Notes under the pieces: model-generated
Database searches by the model: none
Seen by the model: the letters and a program-made list of their open reading frames with translations, nothing else
Told to the model about the DNA's origin: nothing
In this document: piece after piece, positions 15,468 through 19,466 of the stretch
How positions within the stretch are numbered: position 1 is the stretch's first letter
How the letters are laid out: each line of letters starts with the position of its first letter
Assembly (NCBI GenBank): GCA_041158505.1
Contig: JBEBBG010000009.1
Coordinates: forward strand, 5,157 to 69,156
Source of the DNA: Candidatus Parcubacteria bacterium
Lineage (GTDB): Bacteria > Patescibacteriota > Minisyncoccia > Phycocordibacterales > JAACPR01
Direction: 5' to 3'
Length of the DNA stretch: 64,000 nucleotides
Translations under genes and position numbers: made by a program

Positions 15468-18308
15468 ATGAAGCAGTACAATCACAGCGAAATTGAAAAG
15501 AAGTGGCAGCAAGAGTGGGCTTCGGCACGCGCTTTTGAAACGCCGGATACTGTGGCAGGAAAAGAAAACAGCTACATTCTTTTTGAGTTTCCATATCCAT
15601 CGGGAAACTTGCACGTTGGACATTGGTACGCTTTTGCTCTTACCGACATCTACGCACGATTTGAACGTCTCCGTGGCAAGAACGTGCTCTTTCCTGTCGG
15701 ATTCGATGCGTTTGGATTACCTGCCGAGAATGCGGCAATCAAGCACGGTCTTAACCCACGAACGTGGACCTACCAAAACATGGACAGTATGCGCGCACAG
15801 ATGCGTGCTATGGGGTGCACGTTTGATTGGTCTCGTGAAGTGGTTACCTGCGCACCTGAGTATTACAAGTGGACGCAATCACTTTTCTTAACGTTGTTTA
15901 ACGCGGGATTGGTGCAGAAGAAAACAACAACCGTAAACTGGGACCCTGTCGATAAAACGGTGCTTGCAAATGAACAGGTGCTTGCTGATGGCACTGCAGA
16001 ACGCTCTGGTGCGCTTGTAGAGCAAAAAGAAATGGATCAGTGGACTGTTTCAATTACAAAGTACGCCGATCGTTTGATTGATGACCTTGAGCCGCTTGAT
16101 TGGCCAGAAGCGATCAAAGATTCACAGCGTAACTGGATTGGACGGAGTGAAGGAGCAAAGCTCACCTTTACCCTCAGTGGTTCGTATGGTTCGCTCCAGG
16201 TGTTTACCACGCGCCCTGATACGCTCTACGGTGTGACGTACCTTGTCGTCGCGCCTGAGCATGAACTGGTGAGTGTTGCACTTCCTGCACTTGCTAACAA
16301 AGATGCAGTTGAAGCATACATCACAGCTGCAAAACGAAAAACAGAACGTGATCGTTTGATTGGCGAGAAAGAAAAAACAGGAGTACTCCTTGATGGGGTT
16401 ACCGCAACACATCCGCTTACCGGTGAATCATTACCAATCTACACTGCCGACTACGTACTTAAAGGGTATGGTACTGGAGCTATTATGGCGGTACCGGCAC
16501 ATGATGAACGAGACGCCGCGTTTGCGGAGGCATTCGGCTTGCCCGTAAAAAAGGTGATTGCGCCACGTCTTGTTGATGATCGAAATCCTCACGTGGAAGG
16601 TAAAGAGGTAGTCACCCGTAACGCAGTGATTGCTGTCGTCCGAAATCCAGAAAACGACACGTATTTGACATTACATTGGCCAGCGCAGCAGTGGCACACC
16701 TTTGTTATCGGTGGTGTTGAAGGAGAAGAAGATTCAGTTGCTGCGGCTCTGCGTGAAATCACTGAGGAAACGGGGTACACGGATGTACGATTTGTGCGTA
16801 AGTTGGTCGGCCCGACTCGTTCAGAGTTTTTTGCAGCACATAAGGATGTTAATCGAATCGGATACTTTGATATCCACCTCTTTGAACTTGGGAGCCTCGA
16901 ACAAAAAGTTGTCGCAGAGGAAGAAGTTAAAAAGCAAACGTATGAGTGGGTACCACGGAGTGCATTGACTACCGCCATGACCCATACAGAAATGCCGTTC
17001 ATTCTTGAGTCCCTAGATACAGGTAAGGAATTCTTTTGGAGTGGTGAGGGTATCCTCGTAAACTCAGGCGAACATACCGGCCTTTCATCTGCAGAGGCAA
17101 AGCAGCGCATTACTGAAGCGGCAGGCGGGGAACTTGTTTCTACGTACAAGCTTCGAGATTGGATTGTCTCACGACAACGCTACTGGGGCTGTCCAATTCC
17201 TATTATCAACTGTCCACATTGTGGGCCGGTCGCTGTTCCTGAAGATCAGTTACCAGTGGTACTTCCTGAAATCGATGACTACATGCCACGAGATGATGGT
17301 CGCTCACCACTTGCAAAAGCAACTGAATGGATGCAGGTGAGCTGTCCGTCGTGTGGAGGTAATGCAGAACGTGAGACGGATACCTTGGATACCTTCGTGG
17401 ACTCTTCGTGGTACTACTTACGGTATGCAGACGCAAAAAATGAGCAAGTCTTTGCTGATCGTGAAAAACTCAACGCGTGGATGCCAGTAAACTTCTACTC
17501 AGGAGGAGCTGAGCACACAACCATGCATCTCCTCTACGCACGATTCTTCAATAAGGCACTCTTTGATCTAGGGCTTGTTCCATCTGCAGAACCATTCACC
17601 AAACGCCTTAATCGCGGCCTCATCCTCGGTACTGACGGTAACAAGATGAGCAAATCGAAGGGAAATGTGATTGATCCAGATACTGAGGTTGCGCGATTTG
17701 GAGCAGACACCGTGCGAAGCTACCTTGCGTTCATCGGTCCGTACAATGAGCCAGGGAACTATCCGTGGGATCCAAACGGTATCGTGGGTGTGCGACGTTT
17801 CCTTGAGCGTGCAGCGGCCATTCCAGAGCACGTAGTGGTAGAGACGCCAGCGCACGTGCGTCAGCTTGTGCATCAATCAATAAAAAAAGTTGCAGAAGAT
17901 GCAGCGCGCTTCAAATTCAATACAGCAATCGCGCAGCTTATGGTGCTCACCAGTGCTATCTGTAAAGATGGTATTGGTAAAGACGATGCGCAGCTCGTTG
18001 CTGTTATCCTCTCGCCCTTCGCGCCGCACCTCGCAGAAGAGCTCTGGCAGCAGCTCGGAGGTATCTCACTTGTCGCGCATGAACCATGGCCACAGTATGA
18101 TGCATCGCTCCTTGAACAGGCGACTGTAATCATTGCGGTGCAGGTAAATGGAAAAGTTCGTGGGCAGGTAGAGGCCTCAAAAGACGCGACAGAGGCAGAT
18201 GTGTTGCATGCTGCATTGGGGCAAGAAAGCATTCAAAAGTGGGTTGGTGATACTGATCCAAAAAAGGTCATTTACGTCCCAGGGAAGCTCCTTTCCATCG
18301 TTGTGTAG
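15468..18308 (+). CDS. leuS: leucyl-tRNA synthetase carrying an inserted Nudix hydrolase domain
   Basis: HIGH region PYPSGNLHVGHWYAFALTDIYARFERLRG. CP1 motifs TTRPDT and GTGAIMAVPAHDERD. RLRDW-type KLRDWIVSRQRYWGCPIPI. KMSKS as NKMSKSKGNVIDP. C-terminal anticodon-binding region VIIAVQVNGKVRG. A perfect Nudix box GGVEGEEDSVAAALREITEETGY lies at nt 16710-16778, inside an extra ~145-aa block. Confidence 0.9.
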   Translation: MKQYNHSEIEKKWQQEWASARAFETPDTVAGKENSYILFEFPYPSGNLHVGHWYAFALTDIYARFERLRGKNVLFPVGFDAFGLPAENAAIKHGLNPRTWTYQNMDSMRAQMRAMGCTFDWSREVVTCAPEYYKWTQSLFLTLFNAGLVQKKTTTVNWDPVDKTVLANEQVLADGTAERSGALVEQKEMDQWTVSITKYADRLIDDLEPLDWPEAIKDSQRNWIGRSEGAKLTFTLSGSYGSLQVFTTRPDTLYGVTYLVVAPEHELVSVALPALANKDAVEAYITAAKRKTERDRLIGEKEKTGVLLDGVTATHPLTGESLPIYTADYVLKGYGTGAIMAVPAHDERDAAFAEAFGLPVKKVIAPRLVDDRNPHVEGKEVVTRNAVIAVVRNPENDTYLTLHWPAQQWHTFVIGGVEGEEDSVAAALREITEETGYTDVRFVRKLVGPTRSEFFAAHKDVNRIGYFDIHLFELGSLEQKVVAEEEVKKQTYEWVPRSALTTAMTHTEMPFILESLDTGKEFFWSGEGILVNSGEHTGLSSAEAKQRITEAAGGELVSTYKLRDWIVSRQRYWGCPIPIINCPHCGPVAVPEDQLPVVLPEIDDYMPRDDGRSPLAKATEWMQVSCPSCGGNAERETDTLDTFVDSSWYYLRYADAKNEQVFADREKLNAWMPVNFYSGGAEHTTMHLLYARFFNKALFDLGLVPSAEPFTKRLNRGLILGTDGNKMSKSKGNVIDPDTEVARFGADTVRSYLAFIGPYNEPGNYPWDPNGIVGVRRFLERAAAIPEHVVVETPAHVRQLVHQSIKKVAEDAARFKFNTAIAQLMVLTSAICKDGIGKDDAQLVAVILSPFAPHLAEELWQQLGGISLVAHEPWPQYDASLLEQATVIIAVQVNGKVRGQVEASKDATEADVLHAALGQESIQKWVGDTDPKKVIYVPGKLLSIVV

Positions 18309-18428: not shown

Positions 18429-19466
18429 ATGTCAATTACACTCAGTTTCAAACCAAAGCAAATCTCTAAAAAACTTTTGGAGACACTTCCGGAGCGTTCA
18501 CGTGACATTCTTACGAGTCGCTACGGTCTTGGTGAGGACGCAGAGACAAAAACGCTTGAAGCAATCGGTCAGGCATACGGCATCACCCGTGAGCGTGTCC
18601 GACAAATCGAAGAGTACTCACTTGCAAACATTCGCAAGTCTGATGAATTCGAAAAAACCATTCCTGTTTTTGAAGAACTCAAAGAGTCAGTAAAGACACT
18701 TGGCGGCGTTGTTCCTGAGCAGGAGCTTCTCGACGTCATTTCATCAAATAAGAGCATCCAGAACCATCTCCACTTCTTGCTCGTCCTCGGCGATCCTTTT
18801 GTAAAACTTAAAGAGGATAATCAGTTTACATGCCGATGGTGTGTTGATGAGCCGCTCGCAAAAAAGATTGAAGACTCAATCAAAAAGCTCTACAGCAGCT
18901 TGAACGATGACGACATCATCCCTGAATCAGAAATGATTACGATGTTCCTCGACCATATTAAGGAAGTATCTGATGTGTACAAAGACAAAGAGGTGCTCAA
19001 GCGATGGCTCGGCATGTCAAAGAAGATTGGACGAAATCCACTTGGTGAGTGGGGACGCGCAGATTCTCCAAACATTAACGTAAAGGGTATGCGTGACTAC
19101 GCGTACCTCGTGATTCGCCGTCACGGTTCACCAATTCACTTCCGTGAAGTTGCACAGCAGATTGAGCAGCTTTTTGGAAAGAAAGCCCACGTTGCCACAA
19201 CGCACAACGAATTGATCAAGGACAAACGATTCGTACTTGTAGGTCGCGGACTCTACGCGCTTTCTGATTGGGGATACATGAGTGGTGTTGTTCGCGATGT
19301 TATTGTGAAAATTCTCAAGAAGCACGGACCACTTACAAAGGATGAAATCATTGATAAGGTGCTCAAGGAGCGATACGTCAAAGAAAACACTATCCTTGTA
19401 AACCTCCAGAACCCAACCTTCTTTAAAAAGGATGCAAAGGGGCGATACGCTCCCGTGACTGCATAG
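18429..19466 (+). CDS. protein with an N-terminal sigma-70 region-4-like HTH and a ~250-aa unknown C-terminal domain
   Basis: LPERSRDILTSRYGLGEDAETKTLEAIGQAYGITRERVRQIEEYSLANIRK matches the sigma-70 region 4.2 consensus (..R.R.IL..RFGL....TLEEIG..FGVTRERIRQIE..AL.KLR). No regions 2 or 3 are present. Confidence 0.55.
   Translation: MSITLSFKPKQISKKLLETLPERSRDILTSRYGLGEDAETKTLEAIGQAYGITRERVRQIEEYSLANIRKSDEFEKTIPVFEELKESVKTLGGVVPEQELLDVISSNKSIQNHLHFLLVLGDPFVKLKEDNQFTCRWCVDEPLAKKIEDSIKKLYSSLNDDDIIPESEMITMFLDHIKEVSDVYKDKEVLKRWLGMSKKIGRNPLGEWGRADSPNINVKGMRDYAYLVIRRHGSPIHFREVAQQIEQLFGKKAHVATTHNELIKDKRFVLVGRGLYALSDWGYMSGVVRDVIVKILKKHGPLTKDEIIDKVLKERYVKENTILVNLQNPTFFKKDAKGRYAPVTA

Follow-up and report, generated by a model that had tools for sequence, protein, structure and literature searches.

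The leuS gene in a 64,000-nucleotide (nt) stretch of contig JBEBBG010000009.1 from a Candidatus Parcubacteria bacterium, which we call the window, encodes a genuine leucyl-tRNA synthetase (LeuRS) that carries a whole Nudix hydrolase domain in frame. This finding is carried by a profile match, a confident fold prediction and the recurrence of the arrangement in more than 100 independent assemblies. The inserted segment, the Nudix cassette, runs from residue A365 to F522 and replaces a short loop of the CP1 editing domain (coordinates are collected in Table 1). As judged by alignment and domain boundaries, the cassette is nested inside CP1, so that the protein has three levels of nesting (Nudix inside CP1 inside the Rossmann fold).

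Position and fold of the Nudix cassette

The Pfam NUDIX profile (PF00293) matches amino acids (aa) 383 to 500 of the full protein with an E value of 1.3e−10. A preliminary description of this DNA had proposed a complete Nudix domain at nt 16518 to 17048; searched alone, that segment gave 45.9 bits (E value of 7.3e−12) against a gathering cutoff of 21.1 and covered profile positions 2 to 120 of 134. An AlphaFold2 model of the cassette by itself shows the alpha/beta/alpha topology of Nudix enzymes, with a predicted local distance difference test score (pLDDT) of 93.5 and a predicted template modelling score (pTM) of 0.88, and the fold expected in that description was therefore modelled with confidence. 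In the AlphaFold2 model of the full-length LeuRS (pLDDT of 91.2, pTM of 0.81), the Nudix blocks score 90 to 96, and the model superimposes on the solved LeuRS of Thermus thermophilus, Escherichia coli and Neisseria gonorrhoeae with template modelling (TM) scores of 0.72 to 0.78.

The host protein has the hallmarks of its family. It scores 935.1 bits with the bacterial LeuRS equivalog model TIGR00396 (leuS_bact), whose cutoff is 548.4, and it contains the HIGH and KMSKS signatures of the catalytic site as well as a CP1 domain with its T-rich, GTG and Asp-containing motifs. In an alignment of 86 homologues, the residues H49, G51 and H52 of the HIGH signature and K726, M727, S728 and K729 of KMSKS are invariant, as are T247, T248, R249, T252, G335, G337, H345, D346, R348 and D349 in CP1. 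With both its synthetic and its editing motifs intact, the gene product is predicted to be a normal, editing-competent bacterial LeuRS. NCBI holds an identical protein, titled [quoted passage not shown]

The site of insertion differs from that first proposed, which was the catalytic body of the enzyme. The Pfam profile PF13603 matches residues 221 to 370 (E value of 4e−59) and is broken by the cassette at profile position 146 of 185. Residues 217 to 365 align almost without gaps with residues 217 to 363 of T. thermophilus LeuRS, the cassette stands in place of residues 364 to 375 of that enzyme, and residues 523 to 605 align with its residues 376 to 462. We take CP1 of T. thermophilus LeuRS to comprise residues 224 to 417, the editing domain ending at residue 417. 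Because the alignment puts the cassette at the loop of residues 364 to 375, we place it within CP1 and not in the catalytic body. The same nearly gapless alignment contradicts the earlier impression of a shortened CP1 domain. The excess length reported between the AHDERD and GILVNSG motifs did hold up (178 aa, compared with 33 aa in T. thermophilus LeuRS), and the Nudix box lies exactly where it had been placed, at nt 16710 to 16778; AHDERD itself starts one residue earlier than stated, occupying residues 344 to 349 instead of 345 to 350.

Could the arrangement be an artefact of assembly or annotation, in which a frameshift or a chimera joined a Nudix gene to leuS? The preliminary description had doubted this, and rightly so. 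A single continuous reading frame has LeuRS motifs on both sides of the cassette, and over 100 independent assemblies, as well as 30 GTDB species representatives, show this architecture, which rules out a frameshift or chimera; the guanine-plus-cytosine (GC) content of the cassette is also like that of its flanks. We found no support for an artefact, the nearest thing being one fragmented leuS in a noisy contig (L033; P and L numbers are our labels for proteins and for contigs or loci, respectively), and give the idea practically no weight. A recent foreign insertion or mobile element was considered as well and rejected: apart from the flank-like GC content, there are no direct repeats beside the cassette, and NUDIX is the only Pfam domain in it, with no intein or Hint domain.

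Conservation of the Nudix active site

The Nudix box of the cassette, G415 to Y437, fits the consensus GX5EX7REUXEEXGU, and it is the only match to the core pattern E-x7-RE-x2-EE-x-G when the whole window is translated in six frames. A regular-expression search found the strict box in 93 of 105 cassette-bearing homologues. In the cassette alignments G415, G416, E430, E434 and G436 are invariant, and R384, E421, R429, E433, Y437, K459, N462 (the last two in an HKxxNR motif), L474, E486 and W494 are conserved in at least 90%. Position 490 is usually His in the family and is Gln in the cassette of the window. In a minority subtype the box deviates (GQT...A-AEI, E being replaced by Q and R by A or M); examples are P0066, P0091, P0099 and P0103 and the second Nudix copies of P0121 and P0123.

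The mean pairwise identity is 38% for the cassette versus 61% for the LeuRS body. Because the box residues are kept while the cassette averages such low identity, the pattern fits selection on the active site and hence on catalysis. The metal-binding, catalytic Nudix box is intact in the window, and the cassette is apparently an active hydrolase.

Distribution of Nudix-bearing LeuRS

PF00293 is present at the same place of LeuRS in 105 of the 120 best homologues; the other 15 proteins, of 786 to 816 aa, lack it. Names in the source records include Parcubacteria, Paceibacterota, Kaiserbacteria, Adlerbacteria and Campbellbacteria. With two family-specific peptide patterns, we recovered 30 GTDB species representatives, including members of the Vogelbacteria, Taylorbacteria, Minisyncoccia and Paceibacteria; some TPA bins bear other labels. 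All 30 encode, within one long LeuS open reading frame (ORF), a Nudix domain whose box is canonical. These comparisons supply the survey of related genomes that the preliminary description had called for: the Nudix-bearing LeuRS architecture is common in Paceibacteria/Parcubacteria. Public records annotate the proteins simply as leucine--tRNA ligase, with PF00293 among the precomputed domains.

A search with the cassette against 1.84 billion cluster representatives returned only 315 matches at E values up to 1e−3, and the cassette Nudix is thus a small, distinct family. Of the best 150 among these 315 matches, 107 are LeuRS, whole or fragmentary, and the remaining 43 are other proteins; no synthetase other than LeuRS was found among the matches.

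Loss and exchange of the cassette

Closely related enzymes differ in whether they have the cassette. In the closest relative, P0003, whose LeuRS body is 86% identical, GSTEA stands in place of A365 to F522, and the contig (L001) has the same gene order. P0014 and P0016 also lack the cassette, with different boundaries, although it is present in their sister P0002. When LeuRS bodies are placed in a neighbour-joining tree, the Nudix-less proteins are nested among the Nudix-bearing ones; this tree covers the top matches only and is rough, the closest pairs being clear. Another Nudix-less protein, P0013, has a possible Nudix remnant that is too weak to use.

Over 105 proteins, identity of the body and identity of the cassette are uncorrelated (Pearson r = 0.07), and there are pairs with nearly identical bodies and very different cassettes: P0021 and P0044 (95% for the body and 30% for the cassette), P0066 and P0081 (90% and 35%), and P0061 and P0094 (87% and 36%). 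The proteins of the first pair are about 96% identical throughout, save between the sequences “...LPIKEVV” and “...EG.L.NS.” At the DNA level their loci (L036 and L037) are 85 to 96% identical over 8.4 kb and 46 to 55% identical across about 540 nt (L036:5864-6405), with sharp edges. This difference is a replacement of the cassette by recombination or a very recent differential loss of paralogous copies. The same two loci show a dip in identity to 0.36 in the intergenic region upstream of leuS (about L036:4664-4763) and one to 0.69 at about L036:5464-5563, the site of seven extra residues in P0021.

Because one cassette can take the place of another that is only 25 to 35% identical while the hosts are almost the same, a conserved interface between Nudix and LeuRS is unlikely.

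Additional Nudix copies and other embedded hydrolases

The Nudix family occupies at least three positions in LeuRS, and some LeuRS have two or three copies. There are three copies in P0121 and P0123 and two in P0122, P0124, P0126, P0136 and P0188. Some of the extra copies lie before the T-rich motif (at about residue 238 of the query) and some in tandem after the site described here; second copies often have the deviant box. Taken with the cases of loss and exchange, these comparisons indicate that the Nudix module is accessory, dispensable, exchangeable and variable in copy number.

Nudix is one of a wider set of hydrolases embedded in LeuRS, which includes Ham1, HAD and esterase domains besides the multiple Nudix copies. 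About 25 of the 120 closest LeuRS contain, in addition to Nudix, a serine hydrolase of about 178 aa with an alpha/beta fold (PF06821/PF12697/PF00561). It is inserted where CP1 begins, immediately ahead of the T-rich motif, between residues 220 and 250 of the window protein (equivalent to nt 16128 to 16217), and the carriers are about 1,110 to 1,165 aa long (P0035, P0042, P0049, P0054, P0072 to P0074, P0083 and others). The serine hydrolase directly follows Nudix in P0207, P0223 and P0244 and is present twice in P0237. A Ham1/ITPase domain accompanies Nudix in P0127 (aa 247 to 378) and P0192 (aa 984 to 1167, E value of 3e−58), the sites being the early CP1 position or the junction between the catalytic and anticodon-binding domains. 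P0128 has an embedded HAD_2 phosphatase (aa 654 to 808). Unexplained extra residues occur after CP1 in P0031 (about 132 residues, between window aa 540 and 600) and near window aa 150 in P0140, P0181, P0192 and P0258 (about 30 to 55 residues).

Stand-alone relatives of the cassette

Among stand-alone homologues the closest is P0144, a protein of 163 aa from a JGI contig that aligns without a gap over the entire cassette at 40% identity. Just 2 nt separate its gene from a downstream leuS that itself contains Nudix, and the synteny of the locus is like that of the window (DUF5671, Nudix, LeuS, sigma-like protein). A stand-alone gene of this type is a possible donor of the cassette.

Other stand-alone members have different neighbours. 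At L034:4342-5839, the P0200 gene starts 4 nt after a gene for an Fpg/MutM glycosylase, a pairing that recalls the MutM/MutT oxidised-guanine system, and another member adjoins a HAD hydrolase gene. In L039, a member has ArgRS on one side and an IleRS-like synthetase on the other, with dUTPase, thymidylate kinase, three more Nudix genes and a Zeta-toxin-like kinase nearby. The IleRS-like class I synthetase (L039:6094-9645, 1,184 aa) itself embeds a histidine phosphatase (PF00300, aa 523 to 675, E value of 1.4e−30) and has Nudix genes on its flanks. In the P0021 locus, ychF is directly preceded by a gene for a 310-aa Nudix protein and a divergent GNAT acetyltransferase gene (L036:1080-2477), at a distance of about 3 kb from leuS.

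Relation to known Nudix subfamilies

The cassette scores below every NCBIfam equivalog cutoff, and its membership in a particular Nudix subfamily is not established. The best RppH (NudH) model, NF001938, gave 23.4 bits against a cutoff of 116, over the box region only; the MutT 8-oxo-(d)GTPase model NF008044 gave 12.8 bits against 148, and the MutT1 model NF052459 gave 16.3 against 475.

The structural scores of the cassette fail to separate hydrolases of diadenosine tetraphosphate (Ap4A) from MutT, ADP-ribose and DIPP types, and the cassette is about equally distant from MutT-type and other Nudix subfamilies. The nearest solved relatives include Ap6A/ApnA hydrolases, MutT1, RppH and AvrM14. 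The best structural match is the MutT/nudix protein of Enterococcus faecalis (2AZW), a stand-alone protein of unknown function with only 20% identity, which is uninformative on the function of the cassette. In a PDB profile search, the best match spanning the whole domain (2e−9) was AvrM14, which we take to be an RNA-decapping Nudix enzyme, and RppH is among the top fold matches. AvrM14 (8DP8), the Ap4A hydrolases (1F3Y, 1KT9 and 4IJX), Ndx1, Rv2985/MutT1 and RppH are 16 to 25% identical to the cassette and, unlike it, all are free-standing. The defence-system models of PADLOC-DB matched neither the cassette nor the stand-alone P0144 at E values up to 0.01, and PHROGs gave weak generic Nudix matches only.

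Possible function of the cassette

Why would a synthetase carry such a domain? We propose that the cassette is an active pyrophosphohydrolase for nucleotide-type substrates that is tethered to LeuRS and co-expressed with it, outside the catalytic cycle of the synthetase, and we put the probability of this explanation at roughly one half. The substrate would be a nucleoside-diphosphate-X compound, most likely dinucleoside polyphosphates or non-canonical nucleoside triphosphates (NTPs), removed as a form of house-cleaning. The Nudix domain would have no mechanistic role in aminoacylation or editing and would simply be tethered to, and produced together with, an essential ATP-consuming enzyme. 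LeuRS may tolerate such a passenger because CP1 is an insertion in its own right, and a mobile one. We favor a tethered passenger because the position and copy number of Nudix vary and diverged cassettes are interchangeable, and we favor house-cleaning because the co-passengers (Ham1 and HAD) and the neighbours of stand-alone members (Fpg and dUTPase) have classic house-cleaning functions. The Ham1, HAD and serine-hydrolase co-inserts thus point to tethered house-cleaning and not to a tightly integrated, Ap4A-specific device. Some observations weigh against this proposal. A simple housekeeping enzyme would not usually be swapped as a cassette within an essential gene. Pure hitch-hiking does not account for the tie of the Nudix family to LeuRS specifically (107 of the best 150 matches), a hint that the two are functionally connected. 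The protein that matches best in structure, 2AZW, is uncharacterised, and the gene-neighbourhood evidence comes from seven look-ups, of which two were uninformative and one showed a broken leuS (L033).

The preliminary description had suggested a hydrolase acting in cis on Ap4A and other side products of the synthetase. As a dedicated sanitiser of this kind, Nudix would hydrolyse Ap4A, Ap3A or Ap4N arising from the attack of ATP or another NTP on LeuRS-bound leucyl-adenylate. Aminoacyl-tRNA synthetases are a classical source of Ap4A, the Nudix family is strongly and specifically associated with LeuRS, as fusions and as an adjacent gene, and the profile and fold neighbours of the cassette include the Ap4A hydrolases of lupin, human, Caenorhabditis elegans and Plasmodium, T. 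thermophilus Ndx1 (Ap6A), Mycobacterium tuberculosis Rv2985 (ApnA) and Ap4A-bound RppH. However, these structural scores do not discriminate among Ap4A, MutT, ADP-ribose and DIPP types and all equivalog cutoffs are missed, the Ham1, HAD and esterase co-inserts do not suit an Ap4A-specific story, and close relatives manage without the module. LeuRS, moreover, is not known as a prominent producer of Ap4A compared with LysRS or PheRS. We regard such a sanitiser as plausible but rather unlikely. The module might instead have no catalytic role: it could act as a spacer in the structure, sense nucleotides or exert regulation, or bind RNA through its Nudix fold as CFIm25 does. The minority cassettes with a deviant box (P0066, P0091, P0099, P0103 and the second copies of P0121 and P0123) and the Gln at the usual His490 in the window could be read in this way; the canonical box of the window, the 93 of 105 homologues that keep every box residue, and the retention of the Glu ligands and E486 at 38% mean identity make it very improbable.

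A different target would be the tRNA that LeuRS holds. Nudix could repair blocked ends of tRNA(Leu), for example a 3′-pyrophosphate left by toxins of the toxSAS/CapRel type or a 5′ cap or triphosphate, in the manner of RppH or AvrM14. Nudix enzymes hydrolyse the 3′-diphosphate of (p)ppGpp, and all of the inserts cluster in or beside CP1, the domain that handles the 3′ end of the tRNA and binds A76. The decapping enzyme AvrM14 is the best whole-domain match in the PDB profile search and RppH is among the top folds; the esterase and phosphatase co-inserts could act on acylated or phosphorylated ends, and the presence, absence and swapping of cassettes resemble conflict-driven variation. Against this stand the lack of a PADLOC defence-system match, the absence of an obvious role for Ham1 on tRNA ends and the varying position of Nudix in LeuRS, which does not suit a precise geometry toward A76; we consider tRNA-end repair unlikely. 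A wider version, which we judge no less doubtful, holds that CP1 of Paceibacteria LeuRS is a recombination hot-spot for exchangeable hydrolase cassettes, with one to three Nudix copies, serine hydrolase, Ham1 and HAD among them, that act on the acceptor end of tRNA(Leu) or on toxic nucleotides directed at LeuRS. These cassettes would repair or detoxify modified ends (such as 3′-pyrophosphorylated or N-acylated ends made by toxins), and their variation would reflect a biological conflict inside an essential enzyme.

Comparison with known synthetases

Judged by profile matches, both parts of the protein belong to known families, bacterial LeuRS and the Nudix superfamily (PF00293). The LeuRS of T. 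thermophilus (2BYT, 2BTE and 1H3N) and E. coli (4AQ7 and 4ARC) have the same domain order, HIGH and KMSKS signatures, CP1 editing motifs, and anticodon-binding and C-terminal domains, and they are 35 to 37% identical to the window LeuRS with TM scores of 0.77 to 0.78. The difference lies in CP1, where canonical LeuRS have the 12-residue loop and the window protein has 158 aa of Nudix, and no matched solved LeuRS covers the Nudix segment. The LeuRS of Mycoplasma mobile (3ZIU), also matched by the full-length model, represents the opposite trend, loss of CP1 versus its elaboration in the window; this enzyme naturally lacks CP1 and illustrates that the domain is modular and dispensable.

The architecture of bacterial synthetases is generally regarded as conservative; additional catalytic domains are chiefly a feature of eukaryotes, where they are appended, not nested. 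Such eukaryotic synthetases offer a looser parallel. The nearest architectural analogue is the curator-recognised family NF040702 (“ileS_w_GNAT”), likewise a class Ia synthetase with an extra enzyme domain. Both the synthetase and the passenger are different in that family, and the window LeuRS reaches 70 bits against its cutoff of 1,999, making it an analogue and not a member. The preliminary description knew of no LeuRS with a Nudix insertion, and our literature search likewise turned up no description of a Nudix-containing LeuRS, nor of LeuRS insertions in bacteria of the candidate phyla radiation.

Three features make the architecture noteworthy: the domains are deeply nested, the arrangement is widespread in a major uncultivated lineage, and the module is exchanged like a cassette within a gene that is essential and otherwise highly conserved. 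If the cassette acts on by-products of LeuRS or on tRNA ends, it would be a novel form of quality control or repair in translation; if it is a tethered house-cleaning enzyme only, it would still illustrate how nucleotide sanitation is attached to an essential enzyme in reduced genomes. The loops of CP1 also emerge as sites that tolerate insertions unusually well, a property of use in protein engineering.

Features of leuS and its neighbourhood

Table 1. Coordinates of leuS and of the domains and motifs of its product in the window
Feature	Residues	Position (nt)	Strand	Basis
leuS, bacterial-type LeuRS with nested Nudix domain	946 aa	15468..18308	+	Single uninterrupted ORF
HIGH signature (H49-V-G-H52), class I catalytic site	49-52	15612..15623	+	Sequence reading
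CP1 editing domain, first part	221-364	16128..16559	+	PF13603; alignment to T. thermophilus LeuRS
T-rich motif TTRPDT	247-252	16206-16223	+	Sequence reading
GTG editing motif	335-337	16470-16478	+	Sequence reading
AHDERD editing motif	344-349	16497-16514	+	Sequence reading
Nudix cassette, in place of 12-residue CP1 loop	A365-F522 (158 aa)	16560..17033	+	Pfam NUDIX; alignment to T. thermophilus LeuRS
Nudix box GGVEGEEDSVAAALREITEETGY, fits GX5EX7REUXEEXGU	G415-Y437	16710..16778	+	Sequence reading
Post-box family residues	H458-K459-x-x-N462-R463, E486 (invariant, acidic), W494	16833..16952	+	Cassette alignments
CP1 editing domain, second part, FWSGEGILVNSGEH..., back to catalytic body at KLRDW	About 523-560	17034..17147	+	Alignment to T. 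thermophilus LeuRS
KMSKS signature	726-730	17643..17657	+	Sequence reading
Anticodon-binding domain	800-908	17865..18191	+	Pfam PF08264, E value of 2.9e−16

Two further ORFs overlap the cassette. An antisense ORF (16589-17149, − strand, 186 aa) is probably spurious and has no Pfam match, and an ORF in another frame of the + strand (16702-16968, 88 aa) is probably spurious as well.

The gene order around leuS is YchF, DUF5671, LeuS, a Sigma70_r4/HARE-HTH protein, an unknown protein, YceG and MnmA. The gene directly downstream of leuS (18429-19466, + strand) encodes Sigma70 region 4 at the N terminus and HARE-HTH only, and its pairing with leuS is kept in all syntenic loci seen.

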